Source: Candidatus Omnitrophota bacterium (GTDB taxonomy: Bacteria > Omnitrophota > Gorgyraeia > Gygaellales > Profunditerraquicolaceae). Taken from it: a stretch of DNA of 64,000 nt. Location: assembly GCA_041663665.1 (NCBI GenBank), contig JBAYMG010000003.1, forward strand, positions 3,991 to 67,990, read 5' to 3'. Under the pieces are notes generated by a model. That model had not been told where the DNA came from and did no database searches. It saw nothing but the letters and a program-made list of their open reading frames with translations. Within the stretch, counting starts at the first letter, position 1; each line of letters opens with the position of its first letter. The position numbers were made by a program, and so were the translations under genes. This document shows, in pieces, positions 15,808-62,585 of the stretch.

Positions 15808-15841
15808 TGATTTATCTATGTAAAAATAATATAATGCATCC

Positions 15842-16393
15842 ATGGGGTATGAGGTTGCGCTTAATAAAGCTTGGGATAATTTGGCTAACCAGAAGGCGCC
15901 CAATAATTTATCAGTAAAATTTATGGGCGATGAGTATAGTATAGACATTGTTCTAAAGCGTATCCTTTCTCTATCTTGTAACACTCCGGTCAAGGATTTT
16001 CCGGCTATCTTAATTTTGCATTATTTGCTGCAGAAATTAAAGGGGATGCCTGCAATAACTGGCCTCTGGCTTACTTTCAGGGAGTTTTCCGGGATTGAAG
16101 GTTATTATGACGCTTATCATAAGCGTTCAATTGAGCCGTTAATCCGTAAATATGGCAAGCATCCGGATGCCATTAAAGATGTTTTAAACCGGTTACCGGG
16201 CAGGCTTGCCAGCGGCGGAGATGTAGGTATTATTATTGAGGTTTTTGAGGATATTCCGGTATTGATCAAACTTTGGGAGCAGGATACGGAATTTGGCCCG
16301 GATGCCAATATGTATTTTGACGCAAGCATAAAAGACATTTTTTGTATTGAGGATATTATAGTTTTAGCTCAACTGGTTAGCAGTCAGCTTTAG
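15842..16393 (+). CDS. hypothetical protein, DUF3786-like
   Basis: 183 aa, no catalytic motif recognised. N-terminus YEVALNKAWDNL and the SLSCNTPVKDFPAILILHYL segment resemble the DUF3786 family as I recall it. An internal start at 15923 is possible. Confidence 0.45.
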   Translation: MGYEVALNKAWDNLANQKAPNNLSVKFMGDEYSIDIVLKRILSLSCNTPVKDFPAILILHYLLQKLKGMPAITGLWLTFREFSGIEGYYDAYHKRSIEPLIRKYGKHPDAIKDVLNRLPGRLASGGDVGIIIEVFEDIPVLIKLWEQDTEFGPDANMYFDASIKDIFCIEDIIVLAQLVSSQL

Positions 16394-26594: not shown

Positions 26595-27689
26595 ATGTTT
26601 TGGTATACTTATTTTAAAGGGGGAATTCCGGTGGTTTCGCTAAAAGAGCACTTATGTAATTTGGTTACCGGCAAAACAAAAGGTTTGGTGGCTGGGCTTT
26701 TGAGGGGTTTTTTATTTGTGCTTTCTTTAATTTATGGTTTGATTGTAGTTATTTTGGCAGGGTTCTATAGGGCCAGGCCGGTTAAATTTAAAGCTAAAGT
26801 TATCAGTGTAGGTAATATTACCTTGGGGGGTACAGGTAAAACGACTTTTGTTGAGTATTTGGCTGGTAAATTAAATTTAGAAGGAAGGAAGATTGCAGTA
26901 TTAAGCCGCGGTTATAAAAGTAAAAAGCATGACGGCTTGCAAGCCAGGGGTGATGAGCCGGCTATGTTAGAAAAGAAATTGCCATTTGCTCTAGTGTTAG
27001 TTGATAAGAATAGGGTCAGGTCGGCTCTTAAGGCGACTAAAGATTATGCGGTAGATACCTTAATTCTTGATGACGGTTTGCAGCAGTGGCGGATATTTAA
27101 AGATTTAGAGATAGTGGCTATTGATGTCGGCAATGCTTTTGGAAATTCCCGTATACTTCCGGCTGGTTTCTTGAGGGAGCCGCTAAGTGCTTTAAAGCGT
27201 GCAGATGTCTTTCTGTTGACTCAAGGCTTTCTTGGGCAAGATGTAAATGAATTGACGGCTAAATTAAAACGCATAAATTCTCAAGCCCTAATTATTGAAT
27301 CCGTACATCAACCTGTGGGGTTTAGCCCCCTGGATAACCCGGATGAGCTGTTAAGTTTAGATTTCTTTAGAGGCAAAAGTGTAATGATATTTTCTGGTAT
27401 TGGCAATCCCCTGGGGTTTGAAAATAGCATTAGTTCATTGGGAGCCAATATTGCTAAAGCAATTAGATTTAGCGACCATCATGATTATACTATTGAGGAT
27501 GTCGATAAGCTTATTGTTGAAGCACAACGAAAGAAATTAGAAGCAGTTATCACAACCGAAAAGGATGCTGTTAAAATCAGGCAGTTAGGGATAAAGGATT
27601 CCGGCATATCGGTCTTAGGCATAGAGTTAAAGGTAATTAAAAATGAAGCCGAACTCGATCGTAGATTATTCAGCTTGTATTCTTTTTAG
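26595..27689 (+). CDS. lpxK: tetraacyldisaccharide 4'-kinase
   Basis: P-loop VGNITLGGTGKT; 364 aa. The in-frame GTG at 26631, with SD AAGGGGGAA 7 nt upstream, is a better start if the promoter at 26563-26591 is real. Confidence 0.88.
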   Translation: MFWYTYFKGGIPVVSLKEHLCNLVTGKTKGLVAGLLRGFLFVLSLIYGLIVVILAGFYRARPVKFKAKVISVGNITLGGTGKTTFVEYLAGKLNLEGRKIAVLSRGYKSKKHDGLQARGDEPAMLEKKLPFALVLVDKNRVRSALKATKDYAVDTLILDDGLQQWRIFKDLEIVAIDVGNAFGNSRILPAGFLREPLSALKRADVFLLTQGFLGQDVNELTAKLKRINSQALIIESVHQPVGFSPLDNPDELLSLDFFRGKSVMIFSGIGNPLGFENSISSLGANIAKAIRFSDHHDYTIEDVDKLIVEAQRKKLEAVITTEKDAVKIRQLGIKDSGISVLGIELKVIKNEAELDRRLFSLYSF

Positions 27690-29568
27690 GTTAGTAAGCT
27701 TTTTCACAGCTTACTTACCTTTAAATTTCAGTCTTTTTTTTGGCAGGAGGCTGGGTGATCTTATTTATCTATTTGATAGGAAACATCGCTTGATTGCCTA
27801 TACGAATATCCGGCACGCTTTAGCTGATAAAATTAATTGGCAGAGATGCAAAAAGATTACTCGTTCTGCTTACCAGTCTTTTGGCCAGAATCTTATGGAA
27901 ATTTCTTTCATCGGGCGTATAGATAAACAGTATCTTGAAAAATATATCCAAATTGAGAATAAAGATAACATCGATGCTGCTTTTAAGAGAGGTAAGGGGG
28001 TAATTTTCCTGGCGGTTCATGAAGGAGATTGGGAGCTTTCTAATATTATTTGTGCCAATTTAGGTTTTCCTTTTACTTTGTTTGTGCGCGACCAGGGGCT
28101 TCCCCGGCTTAATGATTTACTTAATTCATATCGGCTTAAACGGGGGGCAAAGATTATTCATAAAAAAGCCGGAGTACGCCAATTAATTGAAGTGCTTAAA
28201 AATAACCAGGCGATCGGGATGACTACCGACCAGGGCGGCAAGAATGGACAACTGGTTAGATTTTTTGGGCAAGATGCTTCAATGGCTGTGGGTGCTGTAA
28301 AGTTGGCATTAAAGTATGATTGTTCAATAATTCCGGTTTTTTATACGCGGATTAAAGGTCCTTATACTAAAGTATTTTTGGATCAAGTTTATACGGTTAC
28401 CAGAAGCGAAAACCCTGAGAATGATTTAAAGGATAATTTGCAGAGAATAATTAGTGTCTATGAAAATTATATCCGGAAATATCCTTATGAATATCTCTGG
28501 ACTTACAAGGTATGGAAGTACGGCAAGGATAAGGAAATCTTAATTCTTTCTGATGGAAAAACCGGCCATTTGCGTCAATCAGAAGGATTAGCTAAATTAA
28601 TTAACCAACAGTTGTCCAGCCGGGGCATAAAAACTAATTTGTTTATTAAAGAAGTAAAATTCGGCCGCGAGGCCTTAGTTTGGCTTCAAATAGCCAAAGC
28701 CATCGGCCGCATTGATTGTTTGCGCCATGCTTTAACTGATGAAAGCTGGCAAAGTTTAATGAGTTCTAAACCGGATTATATTATTTCTGCCGGAGGCTTG
28801 ATGAGTGTTCTAAATTATCTTTTAGCCCGGGAAAACCAGGCAAAATCAATTTGCTTAATGAAGCCGTCGAATATCAGCTTAAAAAAATTTAATTTAGTAA
28901 TTGTTCCGGAACACGACGGGAATTTTAAAAGAAAGAACGTCGTAATTACTGAAGGGGCGCTTAATTTAATTGACGCTGATTATTTAAATCAGAAACTAGA
29001 GAGAATAAGGCGCTCTGGCCTTATCAAAGCAGGTTTACTTAATCCTTGTATTGGGGTATTAATTGGAGGAGATAGTAAGAATTTTTCTCTCGATCAAAAG
29101 ATAATAACTAAGCTTGCTGTTCAAATTAAGAAATCTGCTGAAGAGTTAAATGCCAGCCTTTTGATTTCTACTTCACGTCGTACTTCTCCGGAAGTCCAGG
29201 AGCAGGTAAAAAATGAATTTGCCAATTATCCACGCTGCAAGTTGTTGGTTATTGCCAATGAGAATAACAATCCGGATGTTGTTGGAGGAATAATCGGATT
29301 AAGTAATATAATAATCAATTCTCCGGAAAGTATTTCCATGATTTCTGAAGCCGCGGCAGGAGAGAAATACGTTGTCGTATTTAAGGCTAGAGGCCTGAGT
29401 AGAAAGCATGAACGTTTTTTAAAAAAATTTCAAACCAAGAAGTATATCTATTTTAAACAGATTGAAGAATTAGCTGATTGTCTTAACTGGATATGGCAAA
29501 ATAAACCTCAAGTTAATTCTCCCCGGGATGATTTAAAAGTAATTGAGGGTTTAAATAAAATAATATGA
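27643..29568 (+). CDS. fusion: lipid A biosynthesis late acyltransferase (LpxL/HtrB family) + C-terminal ELM1-like (DUF1022) domain
   Basis: N-terminal ~300 aa: TM anchor, then LAVHEGDWELSN (H(X)4D/E-type acyltransferase motif) and the MTTDQGG region typical of Kdo2-lipid IVA acyltransferases. C-terminal ~340 aa starts ILILSDGKTGHLRQSEGLAKL, resembling the SDGkxGHenQ opening of the Mito_fiss_Elm1 family. 47-nt overlap with lpxK. Confidence 0.65.
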   Translation: MKPNSIVDYSACILFRLVSFFTAYLPLNFSLFFGRRLGDLIYLFDRKHRLIAYTNIRHALADKINWQRCKKITRSAYQSFGQNLMEISFIGRIDKQYLEKYIQIENKDNIDAAFKRGKGVIFLAVHEGDWELSNIICANLGFPFTLFVRDQGLPRLNDLLNSYRLKRGAKIIHKKAGVRQLIEVLKNNQAIGMTTDQGGKNGQLVRFFGQDASMAVGAVKLALKYDCSIIPVFYTRIKGPYTKVFLDQVYTVTRSENPENDLKDNLQRIISVYENYIRKYPYEYLWTYKVWKYGKDKEILILSDGKTGHLRQSEGLAKLINQQLSSRGIKTNLFIKEVKFGREALVWLQIAKAIGRIDCLRHALTDESWQSLMSSKPDYIISAGGLMSVLNYLLARENQAKSICLMKPSNISLKKFNLVIVPEHDGNFKRKNVVITEGALNLIDADYLNQKLERIRRSGLIKAGLLNPCIGVLIGGDSKNFSLDQKIITKLAVQIKKSAEELNASLLISTSRRTSPEVQEQVKNEFANYPRCKLLVIANENNNPDVVGGIIGLSNIIINSPESISMISEAAAGEKYVVVFKARGLSRKHERFLKKFQTKKYIYFKQIEELADCLNWIWQNKPQVNSPRDDLKVIEGLNKII

Positions 29569-31658
29569 AAATATTGCAGATATTGCCTGAACTTAATGTC
29601 GGAGGAGTTGAAACCGGGACTTTGGATTTATCCAAATATCTGGTTCGGCTGGGACATAAATCAGTAGTTGTTTCTGCCGGCGGGAGTTTGGTTAAAGAAT
29701 TAGAATCCGGAGGCGCTAAACATTATACCTTAGCAGTAAACAAGAAATCGATTGTTTCTATGTTCAAGTTGGTTCCGGAATTAGTTAAGATAATTAAAAA
29801 AGAAGAGATTGATATTGTGCATGCTCGTTCAAGGGTGCCGGCTTGGATCGCTTATTTTGCCTGTCGGCGGACCAAAGCAGTATTGATTACTACTTGCCAC
29901 GGTTATTATAAAAAACACTTTTTTGGTTTAGTCATGGGCTGGGCAAAAAGAGTAATTGCTATAAGCAATGTGATTGCCAGGCATATGATCGATGATTTTT
30001 CTGTTCCGCATGATCGTATTAAGCTTGTGCCGCGCAGCGTAGATTTAGAGAAATTTAAGTACCTTGACCCTAAAGAAAAAAGAAAGGAAGTTTTTAATGT
30101 CGGCATTATCGGCAGGATTACTCCACTCAAGGGACACTTGCATTTTATTAAGGCTATGGCGCATCTTTCCCGGGTTATTCCGCGCTTAAAGATTTGGATT
30201 GTCGGGGATGCTCCTGCTTCGAAGGAAGCGTATAAAGAAGAAGTCCAGGTTTTAGTCCGCAGGCTCGGGCTTTGGCATTGCACGCAGTTTTTGGGTACGC
30301 AGCGGGATATTCCTGGAATACTGGCGAATTTGGATTTAGTAGTTTTGTCGACTACAACCCATGAAGCATTCGGCCGGGTGGTGGTTGAGGCCCAGGCTGC
30401 TGGAGTACCGGTGGTAGCTACCAAGGTCGGAGGCGTAATTGATATTATTGAGGATGGTAAAAATGGGCTTCTTGTGCCTCCGGCAGATCACAAGAGTATG
30501 GCTGAAGCTGTGCTGCGGATATACAAGGATGTGCAATTAGCAAGAGAATTAGCTGAGAATGCTTATGCTAAGGTTAAAGAAAAGTATAATGTGGAATTAA
30601 TGGTTAAAAATACCCTGGATGTTTACCGGGATGCTTTAAGTAATTTTAAAATTCTAATCATTAAGCTTAGTTCTTTAGGGGATGTAATTCTAACTACCGC
30701 GGCGTTAAGGGCTATCCGGGAAAAATTTCCCCGGCCGAATTTTAAAATAAGCTTTTTAATTGGTGAAGAATCTAAGGATATACTTTTGAGGAGCCCTTAC
30801 ATTGATGAACTGTTAGTTTGTGACCTAAAGAATAAAGATAAAGGTTTATCCGGCTTATGGAACGTTGGGAATATTTTACGCAAGAAATATTTTGACATGG
30901 TCATCGACCTGCAGAATAGCCGGGCAAGCCATGTATTATCTTATTTAAGCGGTTCGATTAACCGGTATGGCTATGACAACAATAAATTTTCTTTTTTACT
31001 TAATCATACTATTAGAGATGACAAGTCGTTGATTGATCCGGTAACTCATCAATTTAGAATTTTAAAAATGCTCGGAATTGATCTTTTGAATAGCCGTCTT
31101 GAGCTTTGGCCGTCTATGGAAGATAGTAAAGCTATGGATGAGCTTTTGAACGCCCAGTGGGTAAGCCAGGCGCAAAAGATTGTTGGGATTAATATTAGTG
31201 CTTCTAAAAGGTGGAATACTAAAATTTGGCCGCTGGAATATCTAGTCTGTTTGTGCGAAGAATTAGGATTAAAAGATATACGTGTGGTAGTCACCGGTAC
31301 AGCTAGCGATATTTCTTTTGCTAACCGGTTGATTGGTTCAATAAAAAATACGAAGATTATCAATGTTTGTGGTAAAACCAGCATAAACGAGTTAGCGGCT
31401 TTAATTAGTAAATGTAACGTATTTATTTCTGCGGATTCTTCTCCGCTGCACGTTGCTTCTGCTGTTGGCACTGCTTTTGTTGCGTTGTTTGGCCCGACTG
31501 ATTACCGCCGGCATTTACCTCCCGGTAAAAATTGTGTTGTAATTAGCAAGAACCTGAATTGTAGCCCTTGTTATAAAACTAGCTGCCGGTCTAAGCGCTG
31601 TATGGCTGAGATTAAACCCAATGAAGTATTTGAAGCTGTGGTAAAATTGCTTAAATGA
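29565..31658 (+). CDS. bifunctional glycosyltransferase: N-terminal GT4 (GT-B, retaining) + C-terminal GT9 (heptosyltransferase-like) domains
   Basis: N-terminus MKILQILPELNVGGVETGTLDL...E(X)7E-type region VVEAQAAGVPVVATKVGG. C-terminus ILIIKLSSLGDVILTTAALRAIREKFP and ADSSPLHVASAVG (GT9 signatures). 697 aa. Confidence 0.8.
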   Translation: MKILQILPELNVGGVETGTLDLSKYLVRLGHKSVVVSAGGSLVKELESGGAKHYTLAVNKKSIVSMFKLVPELVKIIKKEEIDIVHARSRVPAWIAYFACRRTKAVLITTCHGYYKKHFFGLVMGWAKRVIAISNVIARHMIDDFSVPHDRIKLVPRSVDLEKFKYLDPKEKRKEVFNVGIIGRITPLKGHLHFIKAMAHLSRVIPRLKIWIVGDAPASKEAYKEEVQVLVRRLGLWHCTQFLGTQRDIPGILANLDLVVLSTTTHEAFGRVVVEAQAAGVPVVATKVGGVIDIIEDGKNGLLVPPADHKSMAEAVLRIYKDVQLARELAENAYAKVKEKYNVELMVKNTLDVYRDALSNFKILIIKLSSLGDVILTTAALRAIREKFPRPNFKISFLIGEESKDILLRSPYIDELLVCDLKNKDKGLSGLWNVGNILRKKYFDMVIDLQNSRASHVLSYLSGSINRYGYDNNKFSFLLNHTIRDDKSLIDPVTHQFRILKMLGIDLLNSRLELWPSMEDSKAMDELLNAQWVSQAQKIVGINISASKRWNTKIWPLEYLVCLCEELGLKDIRVVVTGTASDISFANRLIGSIKNTKIINVCGKTSINELAALISKCNVFISADSSPLHVASAVGTAFVALFGPTDYRRHLPPGKNCVVISKNLNCSPCYKTSCRSKRCMAEIKPNEVFEAVVKLLK

Positions 31659-31727
31659 ACCACGTATATTCTGTAATTTTAACTATGGAATGGGGTTTAA
31701 TGAAATGAATAAGGAAGAGGGTGTAAG

Positions 31728-32822
31728 GTGAATGTGCTTTTTATTGCTAATCATCTTAACGTTGGTGGAATATCCAGTTATCTGTTTACTTTATCTACCG
31801 GTTTAAAAGAAAATGGGCATAATGTTTATTTGGCTTCCAGCGGCGGAGAATTAGTTGAAAAGTTTGTTTTGTCGGGAATAAAACATATCCAGGTCCCCCT
31901 AAAGACAAAGAGCGAAATCAGCCCGAAAATTATTCTTAGTTTTTTAAAATTAAAAAAACTGATGCGGGTAAATAATATTGACCTGGTTCATTCCAATAGC
32001 CGGACTACTCAGGTGTTGGGTAATTTATTGAGCCGATCCAGGGGTGTTGTGCATATTTTCACTTGTCACGGTTTTTTTAAGCCGAAACTTTCACGCAGGC
32101 TTTTCCCATGTTGGGGAGAAGCTGTTATTGCTATCAGCCAAGAGGTAAAAGAGCATTTAATTTTCGATCTTAAATTACCTGAGTGTAAGATAAGTGTAAT
32201 AAATAATGGTATTGATGTTAAAAATTTCGGAGATTTTTCGCAAAGGGATAATTTACGTAAAAAATTAGGAGTTAATGACCAGTTTTTAGTCGGTATTATC
32301 GCCCGTTTATCTGATGTAAAAGGCCATATTTATCTTATTCGGGCAATGCCTGAAATTTTGAAAAGCTTTGCTCTGGTTAAATTATTAATTATCGGAGAGG
32401 GTAAGATGAAAACAACGCTAGTTAAGGAAGTTGATCGCTTAGGTATTAAGGATAGCGTTTTATTTATTGATCAGGCCAGCGAAACTAGGGACATGCTTTC
32501 AGCGATGGATATTTTTATTATGCCTTCATTGCAGGAGGGGTTGGGGCTTGCGCTTATGGAAGCAATGGCTCAAGGTTTGGCTGTTGTTGGTTCTCGTGTC
32601 GGAGGAATAAAGACCTTAATTCAGGATAAGGTTAATGGCTTATTAGTTAATCCGCAGGATTCCGCAATGCTGGCTGAAGCAATCATAACTTTACTTAAAG
32701 ACAGCCGGATGCGCCGTGATTTAGGATTGAATGCGCGTAAATTTATTATGGGTAATTTCTCTAACGAAAAAATGGTTGAAGGTACAGAACTAATTTATAA
32801 ACATTGTTTAAAAGATGGATAA
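31728..32822 (+). CDS. glycosyltransferase family 4
   Basis: MNVLFIANHLNVGGISSYLFTL...LMEAMAQGLAVVGSRVGG; 364 aa. Confidence 0.85.
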   Translation: MNVLFIANHLNVGGISSYLFTLSTGLKENGHNVYLASSGGELVEKFVLSGIKHIQVPLKTKSEISPKIILSFLKLKKLMRVNNIDLVHSNSRTTQVLGNLLSRSRGVVHIFTCHGFFKPKLSRRLFPCWGEAVIAISQEVKEHLIFDLKLPECKISVINNGIDVKNFGDFSQRDNLRKKLGVNDQFLVGIIARLSDVKGHIYLIRAMPEILKSFALVKLLIIGEGKMKTTLVKEVDRLGIKDSVLFIDQASETRDMLSAMDIFIMPSLQEGLGLALMEAMAQGLAVVGSRVGGIKTLIQDKVNGLLVNPQDSAMLAEAIITLLKDSRMRRDLGLNARKFIMGNFSNEKMVEGTELIYKHCLKDG

Positions 32823-33852
32823 AAGGCACAGTTATAAACGTATTTTAATATTTAACGTTAATTGGCTGGGGGATGTTTTATTTTCTACCGCAACCATAAG
32901 GAATATTCGCATGAACTATCCTGATAGTTATCTTGCCTGCATAATTCCTAGCCGTTGTTCTGCGATATTAAAAGGCAATCCCTATCTGGATGAAGTGATT
33001 CTCTTTGATGAGAAAGATAAACATCGGGGAGTGTTCGCCAAGCTTAATTTTGTCAATCTTCTTAAAAACAAAGAATTTGATGCTGTTTTTCTGTTACACC
33101 GCTCGTTTAGCCGGGCACTCATCTGTCGCTTGGCCGGTATTGTTAACCGCATCGGGCATATTACTAAGAAGCGCGCATTTCTTTTGACTAAGCGGATTGT
33201 TCCTCCGAAAGTTGATTCTCTGCATCGTATAGATTATTATCTGGATATAATCAAGAAGGATGGGCTGCGTGTTGTAGACCGGCACCTGGATTTCTTTTTT
33301 GCCGTTGAAGATGAAGAAGCTGTTGATAAGTTTTTAATTAAAAATTCAGTTTTCAAGGATAATTTTGTAATCGCGCTTAATCCCGGAGGAAATTGGCTGC
33401 CTAAACGCTGGCCTCGGGAATATTGGGCAGAATTGGCGGATAAATTAATTAGTCAGTTAAAAGCGAAAGTAATTGTTACCGGTAGTTCAGCTGATTTATT
33501 ATTGGTTAATCAGATTAAAGAGAATATGCGGGAGTTACCGTTAGTTGCTTGCGGGGTTTTTAATATAAAGCAACTGGGGGCATTAGCAAAAAAGGTTGAC
33601 CTTTTTATTACTGCCGATACCGGCCCATTACATATTGCTAATGCTGTGGGCGCTAAAAAAATAATTGCGATATTTGGGCCGACTGCCAAAGAGATTACCG
33701 GTCCGTATCCGCCTACGAATGTGATTATTTTACAAAAAAATACAGGGTGTTTGATACCCTGCTATAAGGTTGATTGTCAGGATAACCGTTGTATGAAGGC
33801 AGTTACTCCTGATGATGTTTTTGCTGAAGCCAGAAAAGTAATAAAAAAATGA
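32815..33852 (+). CDS. glycosyltransferase family 9 (LPS heptosyltransferase-like)
   Basis: ILIFNVNWLGDVLFSTATIRNIRMNYP, ADTGPLHIANAVG; 345 aa. Confidence 0.85.
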   Translation: MDKRHSYKRILIFNVNWLGDVLFSTATIRNIRMNYPDSYLACIIPSRCSAILKGNPYLDEVILFDEKDKHRGVFAKLNFVNLLKNKEFDAVFLLHRSFSRALICRLAGIVNRIGHITKKRAFLLTKRIVPPKVDSLHRIDYYLDIIKKDGLRVVDRHLDFFFAVEDEEAVDKFLIKNSVFKDNFVIALNPGGNWLPKRWPREYWAELADKLISQLKAKVIVTGSSADLLLVNQIKENMRELPLVACGVFNIKQLGALAKKVDLFITADTGPLHIANAVGAKKIIAIFGPTAKEITGPYPPTNVIILQKNTGCLIPCYKVDCQDNRCMKAVTPDDVFAEARKVIKK

Positions 33853-35855
33853 AGATTCTTTTTGTAACCTTAAGCAATATTGGGGATTGTATTTTGACTC
33901 TTCCGGTTTTAGATGTTTTGCGGGAAAAATACCCGCAGGCAAAAATTACCTGTCTTGTGCCGCCCCGGCCTAGCGAGATTTTTGTTAATAATCCGGTAGT
34001 TGATAGAGTGGTTGTATTTGATAAGCATGTTAAGTTAAAAGAAAAGATTAATTTATTCCTTTCATTAAATAAGGAAAAATTCGATTTAGTTGTCGATTTG
34101 CGGAACAGTTTTTTCGGTGCTTTCCTTGCGGCTAAAAAAAGAACTTCTCCTCTGCGCAGGATTCCTAAAAAGTTCAGGCATATGAAAGACCGGCATTTAT
34201 TTTGGGCTGAATTTTGTGATTATGTTTTGAAGAATAAATTAAATCGGTCTTTAGTGATTACTTCTGGCGATAGGGATTATATTGCGGGTATGCTTAAGGA
34301 GAATAATTTAGCTGATTGTGATAAATTGATCGTGGTTGCTCCTGGTTCACGGAGCCAGTCTAAGTGTTGGGACAAGCAAAATTTTAGCCAGCTCTGCCGT
34401 CGGCTAGTTAAGGAAGGTTTTGATTTGGTTTTAGTCGGTGATAAGGCCGATCAGTTTGCTTGTTCGTATGTGCAGAAATCCTGTCCGGAAGCTGTTAACC
34501 TTTGCGCTAGAACATCTATAAGCCAGTTGGCTGCTTTATTGAAAAAAGCAAAATTATTATTGACCAATGACAGCGCGGTGATGCACTTAGCAAGCTATTT
34601 GGATGTACCGGTTGCAGCAATATTCGGGCCAACCGATGAAGCCAAATACGGTCCATGGTCGAAAAAAAGCGTGGTGATTAAAAAAGATATTTTTTGTCGG
34701 CCTTGTCAGAAAGCGCAATGCCGTTTTCAAACTTTAGCTTGTTTGGCGGCAATCAAACCCGATGATGTGTTCTTGCAGATAAAGCCCTTACTTGAGGATA
34801 ACGGCCAAATAATCCTTGGAAATAATAAGCAGTACCGCAGAATTCTTATCAGCCGTACAGATCGCATGGGGGATGTTCTTTTATCAACTCCGGTTATTCA
34901 GGCCCTAAGGGAAAGTTTTCCCCAGGCTTATATTGCGATGATGGTTACTCCTTATGCTCGAGATATCGTCGAAGGTAACCCTTATTTGGATGAAGTTATC
35001 CTCTACGATAAAGACGGCAAACATAAAAGCTGGGTAGGGAGCCTTAAATTTGCCGGCAGATTAAAGAAGAAAAAATTTGACTTGGCGATTGTTTTGTATC
35101 CTAATAACCGCGTACATTTGATAACTTTTTTAGCCGGGATTAATCAACGTTTGGGTTATGATCGTAATTTTAAATTTTTACTTACAGATCAAATTAAGCA
35201 CACTAAACAATATGGGGAAAAGCATGAATCCGAGTATGCTTTAGACCTGGTTAGGTATTTAGGGGTTAAGCCTAAAGAAGTTTCGTTGTTTATGCCGATA
35301 AAGCAGGAGTCCGAGGAATGGGCTAATGCCTTGTTCAGAGAAGAAGGTATTAAGGGTACGGATAGATTATTAGTTATTCATCCGACTGCAAGCTGTGATT
35401 CAAGGATTTGGCCGGCTGAAAGGTATGCGCAAGTTGCTGAAAAGCTTATTCAGAAATATGGTTTTAAAGTTTGTATTGTTTCCGGCGGTAAGGATATTCA
35501 AAAAGCCAAAGCGGTGGTTAAAAACATGCGCAGTAAGGTGGTGGACCTAATTGGCAAGACTTCAATTAGCCAGGTGGCTAGCCTGTTAAAGAGATCACAA
35601 TTGTTTATTTCTACGGATTCCGGGCCCATGCACGTGGCAGTGGCTTTCGGTGTGCCGGTGGTTACGATTTTTGGCCGCAAACAACCAGGGCTTAGCCCGA
35701 AGCGCTGGGGGCCGCTGGGTAAACAAAGTAAATATCTTCATAAAGATGTGGGCTGCATTCAGTGCTTGGCGCATAATTGCAAAAAAGAGTTTGCCTGCCT
35801 TAAAGCAATCAGCGTTGATGATGTCGTTTTAGCCGTAGAATCAATTTTAAAGTAA
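33849..35855 (+). CDS. tandem double GT9 (two heptosyltransferase-like domains in one 668-aa polypeptide)
   Basis: Domain 1 ILFVTLSNIGDCILTLPVLDVLREKYP...NDSAVMHLAS. Domain 2 ILISRTDRMGDVLLSTPVIQALRESFP...TDSGPMHVAVAFG. Confidence 0.8.
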   Translation: MKILFVTLSNIGDCILTLPVLDVLREKYPQAKITCLVPPRPSEIFVNNPVVDRVVVFDKHVKLKEKINLFLSLNKEKFDLVVDLRNSFFGAFLAAKKRTSPLRRIPKKFRHMKDRHLFWAEFCDYVLKNKLNRSLVITSGDRDYIAGMLKENNLADCDKLIVVAPGSRSQSKCWDKQNFSQLCRRLVKEGFDLVLVGDKADQFACSYVQKSCPEAVNLCARTSISQLAALLKKAKLLLTNDSAVMHLASYLDVPVAAIFGPTDEAKYGPWSKKSVVIKKDIFCRPCQKAQCRFQTLACLAAIKPDDVFLQIKPLLEDNGQIILGNNKQYRRILISRTDRMGDVLLSTPVIQALRESFPQAYIAMMVTPYARDIVEGNPYLDEVILYDKDGKHKSWVGSLKFAGRLKKKKFDLAIVLYPNNRVHLITFLAGINQRLGYDRNFKFLLTDQIKHTKQYGEKHESEYALDLVRYLGVKPKEVSLFMPIKQESEEWANALFREEGIKGTDRLLVIHPTASCDSRIWPAERYAQVAEKLIQKYGFKVCIVSGGKDIQKAKAVVKNMRSKVVDLIGKTSISQVASLLKRSQLFISTDSGPMHVAVAFGVPVVTIFGRKQPGLSPKRWGPLGKQSKYLHKDVGCIQCLAHNCKKEFACLKAISVDDVVLAVESILK

Positions 35856-35960
35856 CTTAAATTTATCTGTTTTGCCTTATTTTTCCGCGTACCGTTTTAC
35901 TTAAAAACCTGAATAAATCTGCACCTTAAAACAAGCTAATCCGGTTAAGAAAATCAACCG

Positions 35961-36020
35961 TTGTACGCTGAGTCAGTATTGTTAAAATCTATTTGCTTTA
36001 GTGCTAGATTATGCTAAAAT
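35961..36020 (+). promoter_or_regulatory. two tandem sigma70-like promoter candidates upstream of the DHS-like gene
   Basis: TTGTAC-16nt-TAAAAT at 35961-35988 and TTGCTT-16nt-TAAAAT at 35993-36020. The second leaves only ~5 nt of leader before the ATG at 36033. Confidence 0.3.
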
Positions 36021-36032
36021 TATACCTTCAAG

Positions 36033-36962
36033 ATGATAAATATTAAGAAGATTAAGACCTATTCAATAAATACTCGTTTAAGCAAGGTAAGTAAGGGTGA
36101 TTTTGCTCTTAAACCTGTTAAAGGCAAGAGTTTTAGTGCCTTTTTGGATTCTTTGCCCAATATTTTAAAAGCCAAAGATTTGGACGCGGTTTCTTCAGAT
36201 ATAGTTTCGGCGGCTAAGAAAAAGAAGGGCGTAATTTTTATGGCCGGAGCCCATGTTATTAAATGCGGGCTTAATCCGGTATTAATTGAATTAATCCAAA
36301 AGAAAATAATTACCTGTATTTGTTTGAATGGCGCAGGTATTATTCATGATTTTGAGATAGCTTTCCAGGGTAAAACTTCCGAAGATGTTGCTGAGAACTT
36401 AAAGACCGGAAAATTTGGCATGGGCAGAGAGACTGCTGATTTTTTAAATGTTGCTTCGACGAACGGAGTTAAAAAAGGTTTTGGTTTAGGCTATGCTGTA
36501 GCTAATGCGATAGCTGCGGAAAATTTACCAAATAAAGATTTAAGCCTGCTTTATAATGCTTATAAACACAAGGTGCCGGTTTGTGTTTTTGTGGGTATTG
36601 GAACTGATATAATTCACCAGCATCAATCATTTGATGCCGCCTCTACAGCGTTAGGTTCTTTGCGCGATTTTCATATTCTCGTTGACAATATCCGTTCGAT
36701 AAATCAAGGCGGGGTAGTTTTAAATTTTGGTTCGGCAGTATTATTGCCGGAAGTATTTTTAAAGGCGCTTAATCTTGCACGTAATTTGGGGAATAAAGTT
36801 AAAGATTTTACTACTGCAAATTTTGATATGATTTATCAATACCGGCCAAGCCAGAATGTGGTCAATCGCCCGGTTTTGTCAGGGGGTAAAGGCTATTATA
36901 TTATTGGCCATCATGAATTAATGCTTCCGCTTTTAGCCCAAAGTGTAATGGAAAAGATCTAA
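36033..36962 (+). CDS. deoxyhypusine synthase (DHS)-like family protein
   Basis: KKKGVIFMAGAHVIKCGLNPVLIELIQKKIITCICLNGAGIIHDFEIAF aligns by eye with archaeal/eukaryotic DHS ([46 protein letters not shown]). Later VPVCVFVGIGTDIIHQH aligns with IPIFSPAITDGSLG. 309 aa. Confidence 0.6.
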   Translation: MINIKKIKTYSINTRLSKVSKGDFALKPVKGKSFSAFLDSLPNILKAKDLDAVSSDIVSAAKKKKGVIFMAGAHVIKCGLNPVLIELIQKKIITCICLNGAGIIHDFEIAFQGKTSEDVAENLKTGKFGMGRETADFLNVASTNGVKKGFGLGYAVANAIAAENLPNKDLSLLYNAYKHKVPVCVFVGIGTDIIHQHQSFDAASTALGSLRDFHILVDNIRSINQGGVVLNFGSAVLLPEVFLKALNLARNLGNKVKDFTTANFDMIYQYRPSQNVVNRPVLSGGKGYYIIGHHELMLPLLAQSVMEKI

Positions 36963-37015: not shown

Positions 37016-38029
37016 GTGAAAAATTTAAAAAATATTATTAATAAATTTAATCGAGCTAAGATTTTAGTTGTCGGCGACCTGATTCTTGATGAATATATTC
37101 GTGGTACAGTTGAGCGGATTTCTCCTGAAGCTCCGGTTCCCGTGCTTTGGGCCAGCAAGCGTACTTTTGTCCCCGGCGGTACAGCTAATGTTGCCAACAA
37201 TATCAATTCGTTGGGCGGAAAAGTTACCTTGTTGGGGGTAGCCGGCAATGACGCTAACGCAAAAATTTTATTTAGTGAGTTGGAAAAAAGAAAAATCAGC
37301 ACCCAGGGTATTTTTATTGAAAAAAACAGGCACACAACTGTAAAAACAAGGATTCTTGCCGGGCATCAGCAGGTGGTTAGGGTTGATTGGGAACATACAC
37401 ATGATTTAACCGGAGAGCTCAACACGAAAATTTTGAAATTTATTGAAAAGAATATTGATTCTTTTGATGCGATTATTATTGAAGATTACGGTAAAGGAGT
37501 AATTAATATTGCGTTACTTGAGAAATTAATTTTGCTAGCGCAGCTTTATCATAAAATTATTACTGTTGATCCTAAAGAAGAAAATTTCCGGTATTATCGT
37601 GGAGTAACTTCGATTACTCCCAATCGTAAAGAATTAGAGAATGCGGTTAGAAATCTTAAGGTCCAGGATACGGCCAATCGTTTTAAAATGAATACGGATA
37701 AATTGTTTACCGATAAAGATGTGGATTTAGCCGCGCGCGAAATTTTAGAGTATCTTAACCTGGATTCTATTCTGTTTACTTTGGGTGAGCAGGGAATGAA
37801 GTTGCTGGAAAACAACGGCCATCTGACACACATCCCGACGCAAGCTCAAGAAGTTTTCGATGTATCCGGTGCCGGGGATACTGTCATTAGCACTTTTACT
37901 CTGGCTCTTTGTTCGGGGGCCTCAAAATTAGAAGCAGCTTATATTGCGAATTTTGCCGCAGGTATTGTCGTCGGCAAGTCCGGAACGGCAGTTACGGATA
38001 CTCAGGAACTTTTAGAGAGGATAAAATAA
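37016..38029 (+). CDS. hldA: D-glycero-beta-D-manno-heptose 7-phosphate kinase (RfaE domain I, PfkB family), monofunctional
   Basis: ILVVGDLILDEYIRGTVERISPEAPVPVL and DVSGAGDTVIS (ribokinase-like anion hole). There is no fused adenylyltransferase domain. GTG start with SD AAGAGGA. Confidence 0.8.
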   Translation: MKNLKNIINKFNRAKILVVGDLILDEYIRGTVERISPEAPVPVLWASKRTFVPGGTANVANNINSLGGKVTLLGVAGNDANAKILFSELEKRKISTQGIFIEKNRHTTVKTRILAGHQQVVRVDWEHTHDLTGELNTKILKFIEKNIDSFDAIIIEDYGKGVINIALLEKLILLAQLYHKIITVDPKEENFRYYRGVTSITPNRKELENAVRNLKVQDTANRFKMNTDKLFTDKDVDLAAREILEYLNLDSILFTLGEQGMKLLENNGHLTHIPTQAQEVFDVSGAGDTVISTFTLALCSGASKLEAAYIANFAAGIVVGKSGTAVTDTQELLERIK

Positions 38030-38770
38030 ATGGATGTAATCGGAGTTATCCCTGCAAGGTATTCATCGACTAGGTTTGCGGGTAAGGTACTTGCGGATAT
38101 TATGGGTAAGCCAATGTTGCAGCATGTTTGGGAACGCGCCAGGCAATCACGCATGTTGGATGATTTGATTATCGCCTGTGATGACGAAGCTATCCTTAAA
38201 GCGGCAAAAAAATTCGGCGCTCATGCCGTGATGACATCTAAGGAGCATACTTGCGGAACAGACAGGATTAGTGAAGTGGTTAATCCTTTGGATGTTAAAG
38301 TTATTATTAATATCCAGGGTGATGAGCCATTAGTTCACCCGATGATGATTAATAGCGTTGCCCGGGCATTATTAGAAGATCCTTCTTTGAATATGGCTAC
38401 ACTGATGAGAAAAATTGAAGATTCAATGCAGGTATTTGATCCGAATGTTGTAAAAGTAGTGGTAGATAAAAATAATTTTGCTTTATATTTTTCGCGTGCC
38501 CCTATTCCGTTTCTTGCTCCGAATGCCGATATTGAACAGGTAACTTATTATAAGCATATCGGTCTTTACGGTTATACCAAGGATTTTCTTTTTACTTATA
38601 AAAATCTTCCTGCGTCGAATCTTGAGAAAACGGAAAAATTAGAACAGCTGCGCGTTTTATCTGAAGGTTTTAAAATAAAAGTAATTGAAACAACTTTTGA
38701 TACTGTCGGCGTGGATACGGTGCAGGATTTAGAAAAAGTTAAAGCACAATTGCAGAAGGGGATAAACTGA
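38030..38770 (+). CDS. kdsB: 3-deoxy-manno-octulosonate cytidylyltransferase (CMP-Kdo synthetase)
   Basis: MDVIGVIPARYSSTRFAGKVLADIMGKPMLQHV; 246 aa. Confidence 0.93.
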   Translation: MDVIGVIPARYSSTRFAGKVLADIMGKPMLQHVWERARQSRMLDDLIIACDDEAILKAAKKFGAHAVMTSKEHTCGTDRISEVVNPLDVKVIINIQGDEPLVHPMMINSVARALLEDPSLNMATLMRKIEDSMQVFDPNVVKVVVDKNNFALYFSRAPIPFLAPNADIEQVTYYKHIGLYGYTKDFLFTYKNLPASNLEKTEKLEQLRVLSEGFKIKVIETTFDTVGVDTVQDLEKVKAQLQKGIN

Positions 38771-39582
38771 TGCAGCAGGTTAATGTTAAGAATATAAAAT
38801 TTGGGGATAAATATCCGCTGGTACTTATTGCCGGGCCTTGTGCAATTGAAAGCCAGAGTTCTTGTTTAGCAGCAGCTAAACAGATTAAGGATATCGCCGC
38901 CGGCCAAAACGTGCCGTTTATATTTAAGTCTAGTTTTGATAAAGCTAACCGGCTTTCTCATGGTTCTTATCGCGGGCCGGGATTAAAAAAAGGATTAGCA
39001 ATCTTAAAAAAAGTAAAAAACCAGCTTAAAGTGCCTATTTTAAGTGATGTGCATTGTGCAAAAGATATGTCTGCAGCTGCGCAAGTTTTGGATATTATCC
39101 AGATACCGGCTTTTCTCTGCCGCCAGACCGATATTGTGCTCGCGGCTGCTTCAACCGGTAAGGTTGTAAATATTAAAAAAGGGCAATTTCTTGCGCCTTG
39201 GGATATTTTGCCGATAATTAAAAAAGTCGAATCTGCAGGCAATAAGCAAATTTTGATTACCGAGAGAGGGGCAAGTTTCGGTTATAATAATCTAGTTACT
39301 GATTTTCGTAGTCTAAAAATTATGCGCGATTTTGGTTATCCGGTAATTTATGATGCTACGCATAGCGTGCAACTTCCCGGAGGCAAGGGCAGTTGTTCCG
39401 GAGGACAGAGTGAATTCGTTGCCGGACTTTCCCGCGCGGCTGTGGCTTTTGGTTGTGATGGATTATTTTTAGAGGTGCATAATGACCCAAAGAATGCGCC
39501 TTGTGATGGAGCTAACATGATTAATTTTAAAGAATTAGAGGATCTGCTCAAGCAGATAAAAAAGATCAGGGCGGCGTTATGA
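38770..39582 (+). CDS. kdsA: 2-dehydro-3-deoxyphosphooctonate aldolase (Kdo-8-P synthase)
   Basis: LVLIAGPCAIES...KSSFDKANR; 270 aa. Confidence 0.95.
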   Translation: MQQVNVKNIKFGDKYPLVLIAGPCAIESQSSCLAAAKQIKDIAAGQNVPFIFKSSFDKANRLSHGSYRGPGLKKGLAILKKVKNQLKVPILSDVHCAKDMSAAAQVLDIIQIPAFLCRQTDIVLAAASTGKVVNIKKGQFLAPWDILPIIKKVESAGNKQILITERGASFGYNNLVTDFRSLKIMRDFGYPVIYDATHSVQLPGGKGSCSGGQSEFVAGLSRAAVAFGCDGLFLEVHNDPKNAPCDGANMINFKELEDLLKQIKKIRAAL

Positions 39583-40547
39583 AAATAAATGTGGCTAAAC
39601 GGGCAAAAGAAGTTTTTGATATTGAAGCTGATGCTATAATCCAGCTTAAAAGCCGGATAGGGAAAAATTTTATTCAGGCGATAGAATTAGTTCTTAAATG
39701 TAAAGGCAGGGTGGTAGTCAGCGGTATGGGTAAGACTGGAATTATCGCTCAGAAATTTTCTGCAACTTTAGCTTCTACCGGTACGCCTAGTTTATTTCTG
39801 CATACGGCTGAAGCTATCCATGGAGATTTAGGCAAGGTTACCGTTGACGATATCGTAATTATTCTTTCCAATAGTGGCTCAACCGCAGAGATGAAGCAGC
39901 TTTTGCCGATACTTAAAAAAATCGGTTCGCCAATAATCTCGCTTACCGGAAATATAAAATCAATTCTTGCTAAGTATAGCGATGTTGTGCTGGATGTTTC
40001 AGTAAAAAAAGAAGCTTGCCCGCTAGGTTTGGCTCCTACGGCTTCAACTACTGCTTCGCTGGCTATGGCTGATGCTTTAGCGGTATGCTTGTTGGAATGC
40101 AAAGGTTTTAAAGAAAAGGATTTTGCTTTTTTTCATCCGGGAGGAGCTTTGGGCCGCCGGTTGCTTTTGAGTGTTGAGGATATTATGCGCCGAGGGCAGG
40201 CCAATGCAATCGTTAGTGAAGATAAAAAAGTTTCGCAAGTTTTATGTGCGATTACCCGGGCTCGCGCCGGATCAGCGATAGTTGTGGATAAAAAAGGAAA
40301 AGTGAAAGGGATTTTTACTGACGGGGATTTGCGCAGGCATTTAGAAAGCGATGAAAATTTGCCGAGCCGCCGGATAACCGAAGTAATGACTAAAAATCCT
40401 ACGGTAGTTAAAAAAGATATGTTGGCTGCTGAGGCAATGCATATTATGCAGTCTAAAAAAATCGATGAAATTCCGGTAGTTGATAATAATTTTCACCCGC
40501 TGGGTTTATTGGATGTACAGGATTTACTTAAAGCAGGATTGGTGTAA
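39579..40547 (+). CDS. kdsD: arabinose-5-phosphate isomerase (SIS + tandem CBS)
   Basis: VVVSGMGKTGIIAQKFSATLASTGTPS (SIS) plus C-terminal CBS pair; 322 aa. Confidence 0.88.
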   Translation: MKINVAKRAKEVFDIEADAIIQLKSRIGKNFIQAIELVLKCKGRVVVSGMGKTGIIAQKFSATLASTGTPSLFLHTAEAIHGDLGKVTVDDIVIILSNSGSTAEMKQLLPILKKIGSPIISLTGNIKSILAKYSDVVLDVSVKKEACPLGLAPTASTTASLAMADALAVCLLECKGFKEKDFAFFHPGGALGRRLLLSVEDIMRRGQANAIVSEDKKVSQVLCAITRARAGSAIVVDKKGKVKGIFTDGDLRRHLESDENLPSRRITEVMTKNPTVVKKDMLAAEAMHIMQSKKIDEIPVVDNNFHPLGLLDVQDLLKAGLV

Positions 40548-40549
40548 AA

Positions 40550-41092
40550 ATGGATAAGCTAGCTATTGGCGAAGAATTGTGTGTGCGTTTTAAGAAAATT
40601 AAACTTCTCCTCTTGGATGTTGACGGAGTTCTAACCGATGGGAGGATAATTTATGATTCGCAGGGCAGAGATTCAAAATTTTTTGATGTGCATGATGGTT
40701 TGGGCGTTTTTGTTTTACATAAATCCGGAATTAAGACGATTTTGATTACAGCTAAAAGTTCAAAAACCATAAAGCCGCGTGCTCGCGATATGCATGTTGC
40801 TCAGGTCTTCGCCGATATTTTTCCAAAAACTGTTGTTTTGGGCAAAATTTTGATGAAATACAAAGTTTCATCGGATGAGGTTTGTTTTATTGGCGACGAT
40901 TTAGTGGACTTAGCGCTGATGCGAAAAATCGGTTTACCGATTGCAGTCGCTAATGCTTCCGCGCCGATTAAAGAAGCAGCTGTTTATGTTACTAGCCATT
41001 CCGGCGGACGCGGGGCAGTTAGGGAAGTTGCCGAGTTAATTCTTAAGTCACAGGACAAATGGAAAGATATCTTGCATTTTTATGAAGCATAA
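40550..41092 (+). CDS. kdsC: Kdo-8-phosphate phosphatase (HAD superfamily, subfamily IIIA)
   Basis: LLLLDVDGVLTDGRIIYDSQG...FIGDDLVDL; 180 aa. Confidence 0.85.
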   Translation: MDKLAIGEELCVRFKKIKLLLLDVDGVLTDGRIIYDSQGRDSKFFDVHDGLGVFVLHKSGIKTILITAKSSKTIKPRARDMHVAQVFADIFPKTVVLGKILMKYKVSSDEVCFIGDDLVDLALMRKIGLPIAVANASAPIKEAAVYVTSHSGGRGAVREVAELILKSQDKWKDILHFYEA

Positions 41093-41966
41093 AAAAATAG
41101 TTTTAGTTTTTACGTTTCTATTCCTTTTATCTTCCATTCTTTTAGCTGAAGAAAACAAAGAAGCAAAAGAGTCTACTCAACAGATTGGAGATTTTTCCCT
41201 TTCCGGGTTTGGAGATAAAGGGAAGAAGTCCTGGGATTTAGCCGGAAAATCTGCAGATATTTATAATGATGTAGTCAAGCTTAAAGAAGTAAAAGGCAAT
41301 CATTATGCACCGAAAGATAGTATTAATTTAACTGCCGATAATGGAGATTTTAACAAAAAAAGCGGCATGGTGCATTTACAGGATAATGTGGTGATTACTA
41401 CTTCAAGCGGCGCAAAGCTGACTACGGATTCTCTGGATTGGGATCGTAAGCAGCAAATCGTCAGTACTTTAGAAAAAGTTAATTTAAACCGGGCAGATAT
41501 GAATCTTTCCGGAGTTGGGGCAAAGGGGCAGACTGCCTTAAAACAAGTGGTATTAGAAAAAGATGTCCGATTGGATGTTGCGCCTTTTGATAAACAAAAA
41601 AATAAAAAAGAGAAGATTACTATTACCTGTGACGGACCGCTAGATGTGAATTATGAAAAAAATATTGCCATATTTAATAATAATGTTAAAGTAGAAAAAT
41701 CAGATTTAACTATTTATAGTGATAAGATGCAGGTCTATTTTTCTCCCAAGCAGGAAGAAGGTAAAGTCGTTAAGGAAGATGGCGTTACTTCAAGCTCGAT
41801 TAATAAAATTGTAGCTTTAGGGAATGTGCGTATCTTGCGTGGTGAGAACACAACTTATAGCCAGGAAGCAATCTATAATGCATTAGATAGAAGAATAACT
41901 TTAACCGGTAAGCCACAGATAGTTATTTACCAGACGGAGAATCTGAATGCGACTTTTGGAAACTAA
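41082..41966 (+). CDS. LptC/LptA-like (OstA-like beta-jellyroll) LPS transport protein, apparently an LptC-LptA fusion
   Basis: N-terminal TM anchor, then an LptC-like segment ([40 protein letters not shown]) and an LptA/OstA_N-like segment ([20 protein letters not shown]...[22 protein letters not shown]). It sits between kdsC and lptB as in the E. coli kdsD-kdsC-lptC-lptA-lptB order. Confidence 0.6.
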
Positions 41967-42669
41967 AGGGTTAGCTAAGTCTTACGATGGCCGAGCTGTG
42001 GTTAAGGGGGTCGATATAACGGTTAAGCGTGGGGAGATTGTCGGGCTCCTTGGGCCTAACGGTGCAGGCAAAACTACGACTTTTTACATGATTGTCGGTA
42101 TTGTTCCGCCGAATAACGGAACAATTGTTTTTGATAATCACGACATTACTAATTTGCCGATTCATGAGCGTGCGCGTTTTGGCATAGGCTATCTTGCGCA
42201 GGAAGCTTCAATCTTTCGTAAACTTACGGTTGAAGACAATATTACTGCCATTTTAGAGACTTTGCCTTTTTCCCGTGCGGAAAGAAAACGCAGGCTTGCT
42301 TCTTTGCTTGAAGAGTTAAACATTGCGCATCTGGCTAAAAATAAGGCTTACACTTTAAGCGGAGGAGAAAGAAGGCGGCTTGAGATTACTCGGGCCTTGG
42401 TAACTAATCCTTCTTTTATACTTTTAGATGAACCTTTTAGCGGTATTGATCCGATAGTGGTTAATGAGGCGCAGGAAATTATTAAAGAGTTAAAAGCAAA
42501 AGGGCTGGGTATCTTATTGACTGACCACAATGTACGTGAAACTTTAGCTATAACCGACCGGGCGTATTTGATTTCCGGTGGGGAAATTCTTATAGCCGGT
42601 ACGGCGCATGAACTGATTAACCACCCGCAGGCGCGCCAGGTTTATTTGGGTGAGAAATTTAAAATGTGA
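41947..42669 (+). CDS. lptB: LPS export ABC transporter ATP-binding protein
   Basis: Walker [10 protein letters not shown], signature [11 protein letters not shown], Walker [12 protein letters not shown]; 240 aa. Confidence 0.93.
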
Positions 42670-60009: not shown

Positions 60010-60066
60010 TATCTAACCGTAGTTAATAAGTGTTTTTCGGTGTGCCTTTATAGGCAAGGAGGCAGG

Positions 60067-61326: not shown

Positions 61327-61327
61327 T

Positions 61328-62572: not shown

Positions 62573-62585
62573 ATATTGAAAATAA

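Follow-up and report, generated by a model that had tools for sequence, protein, structure and literature searches.

The 64,000-nucleotide stretch analysed in this study (hereafter, the window) comes from a Candidatus Omnitrophota bacterium (NCBI GenBank assembly GCA_041663665.1, contig JBAYMG010000003.1, positions 3,991 to 67,990 of the forward strand) and carries, within a lipopolysaccharide (LPS) locus, a gene that a preliminary description of this DNA had likened to deoxyhypusine synthase (DHS). We refer to this gene and its protein as X, to related loci as L001 and so on, and to other members of its family as P0124 and so on. By combining profile searches, structure prediction and surveys of gene fusions and neighbourhoods, we place X in the catalogued GSU2086 family and connect it, with considerable confidence, to the synthesis of ADP-heptose. 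A protein identical to X is on record from a Candidatus Omnitrophota metagenome-assembled genome (MAG). The locus is laid out as follows.

29565–35855, plus strand: genes for a GT4+GT9 fusion, a GT4, a GT9 and a double GT9 glycosyltransferase, with TIGR02195 heptosyltransferase matches; the block is kept in L001.
35961–35988, plus strand: distal TTGTAC-N16-TAAAAT site, a pattern match.
35993–36020, plus strand: proximal promoter-like element, with a −35 TTGCTT (35993–35998), a TG (36012–36013) and a −10 TAAAAT (36015–36020).
36033–36962, plus strand: X, an open reading frame (ORF) of 309 amino acids (aa), assigned to the GSU2086 family by its NF052581 match and characterized by its AlphaFold model, fold matches and conserved residues.
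37016–38029, plus strand: hldA, D-glycero-beta-D-manno-heptose-7-phosphate kinase, kinase domain only (TIGR02198, 366.7 bits against a cut-off of 345).
38030–42669, plus strand: kdsB, kdsA, kdsD, kdsC, an lptC/lptA fusion and lptB, tightly spaced and identified by NCBIfam and Pfam matches.

The first gene downstream of X is hldA, which adjoins X in 24–26 related loci, and the order hldA-kdsB-kdsA-kdsD-kdsC-lptC/A-lptB is the same in L001 and L002. The stop codon of X overlaps the hldA start in L002, which fits a single X-hldA-kdsBADC-lptCAB operon, of which X is the probable first gene. Just upstream of X, the block at 29565–35855 encodes four heptosyltransferase domains, the consumers of ADP-heptose; four such domains in a row (including that at 32815–33852) point to a heptose-rich core. 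Farther upstream lie waaA, lpxK and a gene for an LpxL-like/ELM1-like fusion, while gmhA, gmhB and hldC were not seen anywhere in the 64-kb window. The position of X between the heptosyltransferase block and hldA-kdsBADC was thus described correctly at the outset; its extent, then given as 35961–36962, holds for the reality of the ORF but not for its start, which is at 36033, position 35961 being the beginning of the distal promoter-like site.

Fused genes recur across this locus. Both glycosyltransferase fusions, GT4+GT9 (697 aa, 29565–31658) and double GT9 (668 aa, 33849–35855), are unusual. A 641-aa protein joining a lipid A acyltransferase (Lip_A_acyltrans) to a ‘mitochondrial fission ELM1’-like domain (27643–29568) overlaps and directly follows lpxK and is kept in L001 (667 aa), and the LptC-LptA fusion is one 294-aa protein (41082–41966; LptC at residues 8–163, LptA at 171–280) kept in both L001 and L002.

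As first described, X is preceded by a sizeable spacer: at 177 nt (35856–36032) it is the longest between lpxK (26595) and lptB (42669). Its proximal promoter-like element, TTGCTT-N13-TGcTAAAAT, is of the extended −10 type and ends 12 nt before the ATG. Among the 12 closest Omnitrophota loci (61–87% protein identity to X), 11 carry TTGaTT-N13/14-TGnTAAAAT 8–12 nt before the ATG, and the remainder of the spacer is not alignable. The distal site shows no conservation in L001, L002 or other relatives and is probably a chance match or specific to its lineage. Across the window the TTGnnn-N16-TAAAAT pattern occurs at 6 sites against 3.6 expected, that is, without enrichment, and a generic sigma-70 scan picked up neither of the two such sites upstream of X. 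The two tandem promoters of the preliminary description therefore both exist as sites, but only the proximal one is conserved, in keeping with the claim that X has a promoter of its own, which stands on firmer ground than we had anticipated. No purine-rich Shine–Dalgarno sequence precedes the ATG of X, whereas hldA has AAGAGGA ahead of its GTG. Since the −10 element ends 8–12 nt before the start codon, the leader would be about 0–6 nt long and the transcript leaderless or nearly so, in agreement with the near-leaderless start proposed earlier; this adds a small extra point on gene expression in Omnitrophota. Searching the 177-nt spacer against Rfam returned no riboswitch or non-coding RNA match, and a terminator scan of it returned no terminator-like site, so read-through from the heptosyltransferase genes could also contribute.

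X matches the NCBIfam model NF052581 ‘GSU2086 family protein’ at 398.7 bits (cut-off 250), with residues 2–303 aligned to model positions 2–300 of 301. It is therefore a full-length member of this family, which is catalogued without an assigned function and whose type member is Geobacter sulfurreducens GSU2086; the view that X belongs to an uncharacterized bacterial group is accordingly upheld. The family forms 2379 clusters at 50% identity (E ≤ 1e-3) and is present in no fewer than 587 species-level genomes from many phyla and groups, including Omnitrophota, Desulfobacterota (with Geobacter), Nitrospirota, Bacteroidota, Ignavibacteria, Gemmatimonadota, Poribacteria, Verrucomicrobiota, Zixibacteria, KSB1, Aminicenantes and Methylomirabilota. 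Our literature search found no paper that assigns a function to the family, and GSU2086 itself turned up in a single transposon-sequencing (Tn-seq) table.

We assessed residue conservation in a 64-sequence family alignment and, separately, in 76 species-level sequences that include X. Seven positions are invariant in the former (E108, T115, D212, G233, K244, E295 and P299) and 19, mostly polar, in the latter (K77, H105, D106, E108, S116, E117, D212, N231, S234, E240, K244, N251, D265, Y270, R271, R279, P280, H294 and E295). Because X retains all 7 and all 19, we judge that it is not a pseudo-enzyme, an outcome that the preliminary description had entertained. The same pattern bears on the idea that X is a non-catalytic subunit that binds a nucleotide or ADP-heptose, for instance as a scaffold for the heptose enzymes or as their regulator or sensor: some 19 positions, mostly polar, that do not vary among 76 species of many phyla are what active and cofactor sites would leave, and X usually stands alone at a conserved length, which together make such a role unlikely.

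An AlphaFold (AF2) model of X computed from the 64-sequence alignment reached a predicted local distance difference test (pLDDT) score of 97.6 and a predicted template modelling (pTM) score of 0.92. Foldseek alignments of this model to DHS from archaea and eukaryotes (PDB 1dhs, 7cmc and 8put) spanned its entire length, at template modelling (TM) scores of 0.61–0.67 and 12–16% identity. On that ground the predicted structure places X in the DHS-like NAD/FAD-binding fold superfamily (nicotinamide and flavin adenine dinucleotides), and its structural similarity extends to Sir2, the middle domain of thiamine pyrophosphate (TPP) enzymes and transhydrogenase dIII.

The resemblance to DHS along the whole length, as first reported, stands for the fold but not for the sequence. 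Pfam DS (PF01916) scores X above its cut-off (31.4 against 27 bits), but over only about 60 residues (55–116, model 20–83 of 288), and the DHS equivalog models reach 13–24 bits against cut-offs of 300–500 (TIGR00321, 24 against 304; NF002294, 17.6 against 350; NF002006, 16.9 against 434). A phmmer search of PDB sequences with X alone recovered no DHS and no meaningful match, and hhalign paired 47 columns with a DHS profile at 1.8% probability, the profile being shallow and confined to vertebrates as the search for homologues had yielded nothing beyond close relatives of human DHS.

We mapped residues between X and DHS by merging their profiles in MAFFT, a mapping that at 12–16% identity is tentative. 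In this merge, human DHS Lys329, which we take to be the catalytic lysine that forms the enzyme-imine intermediate, falls on P280 of X (beside R279), and His288, presumably catalytic as well, falls on A245. Both R279 and P280 are invariant, and never lysine, in the 76 species-level sequences, and K286, which superficially resembles the lysine of the DHS ‘WGK’ motif, varies within the family; X thus appears to have no counterpart of either catalytic residue. The same tentative merge sets DHS D313 against the invariant D265, with fold and loop positions retained. Other NAD-site contacts of DHS meet different residues in X: T104/S105/N106 are set against G72/A73/H74, and E137 against H105. Residues G72/H74/K77, N99–A101, H105/D106, D265 and H294 of X lie in loops that the merge matches to those through which DHS contacts NAD.

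That X might be a DHS-type aminobutyl transferase, acting on a protein or an envelope component, was the starting idea for this gene, and it draws on the DHS fold, on the Pfam DS score just above the gathering threshold and on sources that label relatives ‘deoxyhypusine synthase (family protein)’. It founders on the apparent absence of the catalytic lysine, which the preliminary description had itself named as refuting it, and also on equivalog scores that miss their cut-offs by an order of magnitude, on sequence similarity restricted to about 60 residues and on the lack of polyamine, EF-P or eIF5A genes among the conserved neighbours of X. Nor did we find the family connected with polyamines, with eIF5A/EF-P or with aminobutyl transfer in any way that would bear out the suggested polyamine or aminobutyl modification, and a literature search returned no paper tying DHS to heptose or LPS. 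We consider this function highly improbable: X is not an orthologue of the DHS family, and calling it a DHS describes its fold correctly but not its function. Within the family, the X domain is tandemly duplicated in one polypeptide in P0124 (679 aa) and P0220 (582 aa). DHS is a tetramer with active sites at subunit interfaces and, by analogy, these tandem proteins may be covalent dimers.

A search with the family profile placed ArgZ, AgrE and PDB 3c2q (2e-5 to 1.5e-4) above archaeal DHS (9e-3), and every one of these matches covered the same segment of about 64 residues; in X this segment bears an A-x-H-D-x-E motif that DHS lacks. The GSU2086 family is a distinct branch of the DHS-like fold, as close to the AgrE/TIGR00300 clade as to DHS. 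The structures compared here were those of the AgrE/ArgZ C-terminal domain and of TIGR00300 ‘LOR/SDH’ proteins (PDB 6lrf, 6juy and 3c2q). X is not a member of TIGR00300 (12.2 bits against a cut-off of 410.8), which NCBIfam names nickel-pincer-nucleotide-dependent ornithine cyclodeaminase; according to PMC13524815, which cites Desguin 2025, an ornithine cyclodeaminase uses nickel-pincer adenine dinucleotide, a hydride-transfer cofactor. X could conceivably use this cofactor in place of NAD(P), as a fifth enzyme of ADP-L,D-heptose synthesis, because it has the HDxE motif in common with the TIGR00300/AgrE clade, whose ornithine cyclodeaminases are its nearest structural relatives of known function, and places invariant H74, K77, H105, K244 and H294 in its cofactor loops. 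Among 150 X neighbours, the 25 commonest Pfam families include none for larB, larC or larE, and an AIRC protein in the window (1817–2299) is PurE-like by its length and full model match. We regard this use of nickel as very unlikely; if it were true, LPS core synthesis would be nickel-dependent in lineages that carry X, and the missing fifth ADP-L,D-heptose enzyme would have been found for much of the bacterial tree and some DPANN archaea.

The known enzymes of the ADP-heptose pathway are GmhA, HldA/HldE, GmhB, HldC and HldD. We surveyed fusions in the best 150 cluster representatives of the family, using Pfam as well as phmmer searches that started from the E. coli enzymes, and found 18 multidomain members; the partner domains matched those enzymes specifically. 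The commonest fusion partner is the HldE adenylyltransferase domain (HldC-type), present in 7 of the 18; the HldE kinase domain is fused to X in two proteins, one of them a complete X+HldE, GmhA likewise in two, and a GmhB-type HAD phosphatase in P0228 (81 bits to E. coli GmhB), with an HAD domain also in P0266. X is further fused to a DUF89 phosphatase together with HldC. These fusions with heptose enzymes were seen again on many independent contigs.

The gene neighbourhoods agree with the fusions. Across 75 loci from different species, each surveyed with 10-kb flanks, GmhA adjoins X in 22, usually directly upstream, and the HldA/HldE kinase in 25–26, usually directly downstream, while HldC adjoins it in 6 and GmhB in 2. 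At least one of GmhA, HldA/HldE, HldC and GmhB lies within three genes of X in 46 of the 75 loci, so that the association with heptose genes, whose conservation the preliminary description had suggested checking in related genomes, holds across phyla. A Pfam census of 150 X neighbours is topped by SIS_2 (16) and PfkB (11) and also contains KdsB, GT9, Wzy_C and CTP_transf_like. Gene order is X-(HldC+GmhB)-GmhA-HldA-GT in L027, and GSU2084 (gmhB), GSU2085 (hldE), GSU2086 and GSU2087 (gmhA) in Geobacter sulfurreducens. Published Geobacter Tn-seq log ratios for growth on electrodes report similar defects for GSU2085 (−3.1), GSU2086 (−3.2) and GSU2087 (−3.7). A further cluster is found at the following position.

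327–8419 of L086 (JGI 3300025311, contig Ga0209343_10001525): HldE, a DUF89/ARMT1-like phosphatase+HldC+X fusion of 826 aa, transketolase N, transketolase C+transaldolase, GT9 and two STT3/AglB genes, in that order.

Members of the L086 protein cluster are labelled Woesearchaeota, and no GmhA is in view. The arrangement suggests heptose-containing N-glycans in a DPANN archaeon, with genes for the supply of sedoheptulose-7-phosphate in the same operon.

In seven of the surveyed loci (L017, L018, L036, L061, L066, L071 and L079, from Zixibacteria, KSB1, Bacteroidota, Ignavibacteria and Calditrichia) a DUF3108-cluster protein (representative of about 298 aa) stands directly before X, itself preceded by a GT9-like glycosyltransferase in the Bacteroidota and Ignavibacteria loci.

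We are confident, though short of certain, that X acts in the ADP-heptose pathway. Within that pathway, it could in principle stand in for GmhA, HldA, GmhB or HldC, a thought that its co-localization with the pathway invites, as does the fact that gmhA, gmhB and hldC went unseen in the window. X is, however, fused to or adjoins each of the four, and all four occur together with X in Geobacter and L027. As a GmhB analogue it would be accompanied by GmhB itself (adjoining in L078 and as Geobacter GSU2084, fused in P0228), and GmhA, HldA and HldC are each likewise found fused to or beside X. Since X occurs with, and fused to, all four enzymes, we conclude that it replaces none of them, and give such a replacement next to no credence.

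HldD differs from these four in that it was never found fused or adjacent to X: the 10-kb flanks of the 75 loci contain no credible match resembling E. coli HldD. The best were a 45.8-bit short-chain dehydrogenase/reductase (SDR), encoded on the opposite strand at a distance of six genes, and a 27.9-bit match on a truncated ORF at another locus. The 25 commonest Pfam families of the 150 neighbours do not include Epimerase, and the clusters of L027, Geobacter and L086 read as lacking only an epimerase. One candidate HldD, the protein of about 310 aa beside X in Desulfobacterota (c10/c12), was set aside as HemC and CobA/HemD motifs were recognized by eye; Porphobil_deam occurs in 6 neighbours.

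HldD inverts C6'' of ADP-heptose by transient hydride transfer with NADP. DHS likewise transfers a hydride transiently to bound NAD, and the related cyclodeaminases act in a similar way with a nicotinamide-type cofactor. We tentatively propose X as a non-orthologous ADP-D-glycero-D-manno-heptose 6-epimerase that substitutes for the SDR HldD/RfaD, because HldD is the sole canonical step never fused or adjacent to X, because hydride chemistry runs through this branch of the fold and because invariant residues lie in the cofactor loops. On this view X would be a cytoplasmic enzyme in the part of LPS core synthesis that makes ADP-heptose, holding a tightly bound nicotinamide-type dinucleotide in a pocket equivalent to the NAD site of DHS. 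It would epimerize C6'' of ADP-D-glycero-beta-D-manno-heptose by transient oxidation and reduction, with the invariant Y270/K244 pair as possible acid and base, and the product, ADP-L-glycero-D-manno-heptose, would feed the four heptosyltransferase domains whose genes lie just upstream. The conserved extended −10 promoter probably drives X-hldA-kdsBADC-lptCAB in this Omnitrophota lineage. The family, the fold, the tie to the pathway and the conservation of the promoter are observations, as is, tentatively, the lack of the DHS catalytic residues, whereas cofactor, substrate and reaction are inferred.

Several points weigh against this proposal. In E. coli, and often elsewhere, hldD lies apart from the remaining heptose genes, so its absence from the 10-kb flanks of X says little. 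X is partnered most tightly with GmhA, which catalyses the first step and often forms an isolated gmhA-X pair, and a last-step enzyme is not obviously expected beside it. The Tn-seq phenotype of GSU2086 could be a polar effect within its operon. The residue mapping to DHS comes from a low-identity merge, of which hhalign supports 47 columns, and NAD binding by X is inferred from its predicted fold. Finally, H186, present in 92% of the family and part of the strand ‘T-V-H-V-A-I-G-T-D’, is replaced by F in the Omnitrophota subclade of X (F in L001–L008, Y in L009; codon at 36588 of the window). Two other changes specific to this subclade are T184 to C and P198 to Q, which may mean that a contact to a ligand or metal has changed in this clade.

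The main rival to the epimerase proposal is that X catalyses a different, undescribed heptose step, either on sedoheptulose-7-phosphate or heptose-7-phosphate near GmhA or as a redox tailoring that yields a non-canonical heptose isomer. Pairs of gmhA and X make up the commonest arrangement, at 22 of the 75 loci, often with no further heptose gene close by, and GmhA-X fusions occur. L086, in which transketolase/transaldolase, HldE, phosphatase+HldC+X and GT9 stand together with no GmhA in view, could also be read in this way, as could the many invariant His, Asp and Glu residues of the family. On the other side, the epimerase is the only canonical step without a partner in X clusters, HldC fusions are the commonest, and we know of no further step needed to make ADP-heptose. 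We consider an undescribed step a real possibility but an unlikely one.

ADP-heptose serves as the donor in building the LPS inner core and is also a potent innate-immune agonist, and to our knowledge its pathway is treated as fully known. The distribution of X would embed a fifth, unrelated enzyme family in this pathway in at least 587 species, and also in a Woesearchaeota-type glycosylation cluster. A place for the family in the heptose pathway implies either a large-scale non-orthologous replacement of the epimerase or an unrecognized heptose modification; either outcome would correct many ‘deoxyhypusine synthase’ annotations in bacterial MAGs and would add new chemistry to the DHS-like fold. 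The family itself was already catalogued (NF052581); its tie to the heptose pathway is a good lead.

The window has other features outside the LPS locus. Its large ORFs are on the plus strand except for a 696-aa ORF (13903–15993), the sole long minus-strand ORF not inside a plus-strand ORF. Two further domain fusions join Sua5/YciO/YrdC to a low-molecular-weight phosphotyrosine phosphatase (353 aa, 2296–3357) and Macro to NUDIX (311 aa, 12971–13906). A 575-aa ORF without a Pfam match at 1e-5 (47140–48867) lies between serA (PGDH) and an HMGL-like/homocitrate-synthase-like gene, and two genes for T2SSE-type secretion ATPases (428 and 411 aa, 60040–63821) enclose a class II tRNA-synthetase-like gene (tRNA-synt_2b + HGTP_anticodon).

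Compared with known systems, X differs from DHS in its context, which consists of heptose genes and not of translation-factor or polyamine genes. It has the HDxE motif in common with the TIGR00300/AgrE proteins (H105, D106 and E108 of the segment in X), whose substrates are amino acids and whose sequence match to X spans about 64 residues only. In the portions of Akkermansia lipooligosaccharide papers that were searched, the heptose configuration is not given. With HldD/RfaD (TIGR02197) the likeness is one of functional analogy only, SDR fold against DHS-like fold without sequence homology, the proposed common feature being a bound nicotinamide cofactor that is transiently reduced, as predicted for X. 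We take the Helicobacter cluster to be ordered gmhA-hldE-rfaD-gmhB, with rfaD in a place resembling that of GSU2086 in the Geobacter heptose cluster. X and Geobacter GSU2086 are both associated with heptose genes, hldE, gmhA and gmhB in the case of GSU2086, but whereas GSU2086 sits between hldE and gmhA, X heads the hldA-kds-lpt operon.

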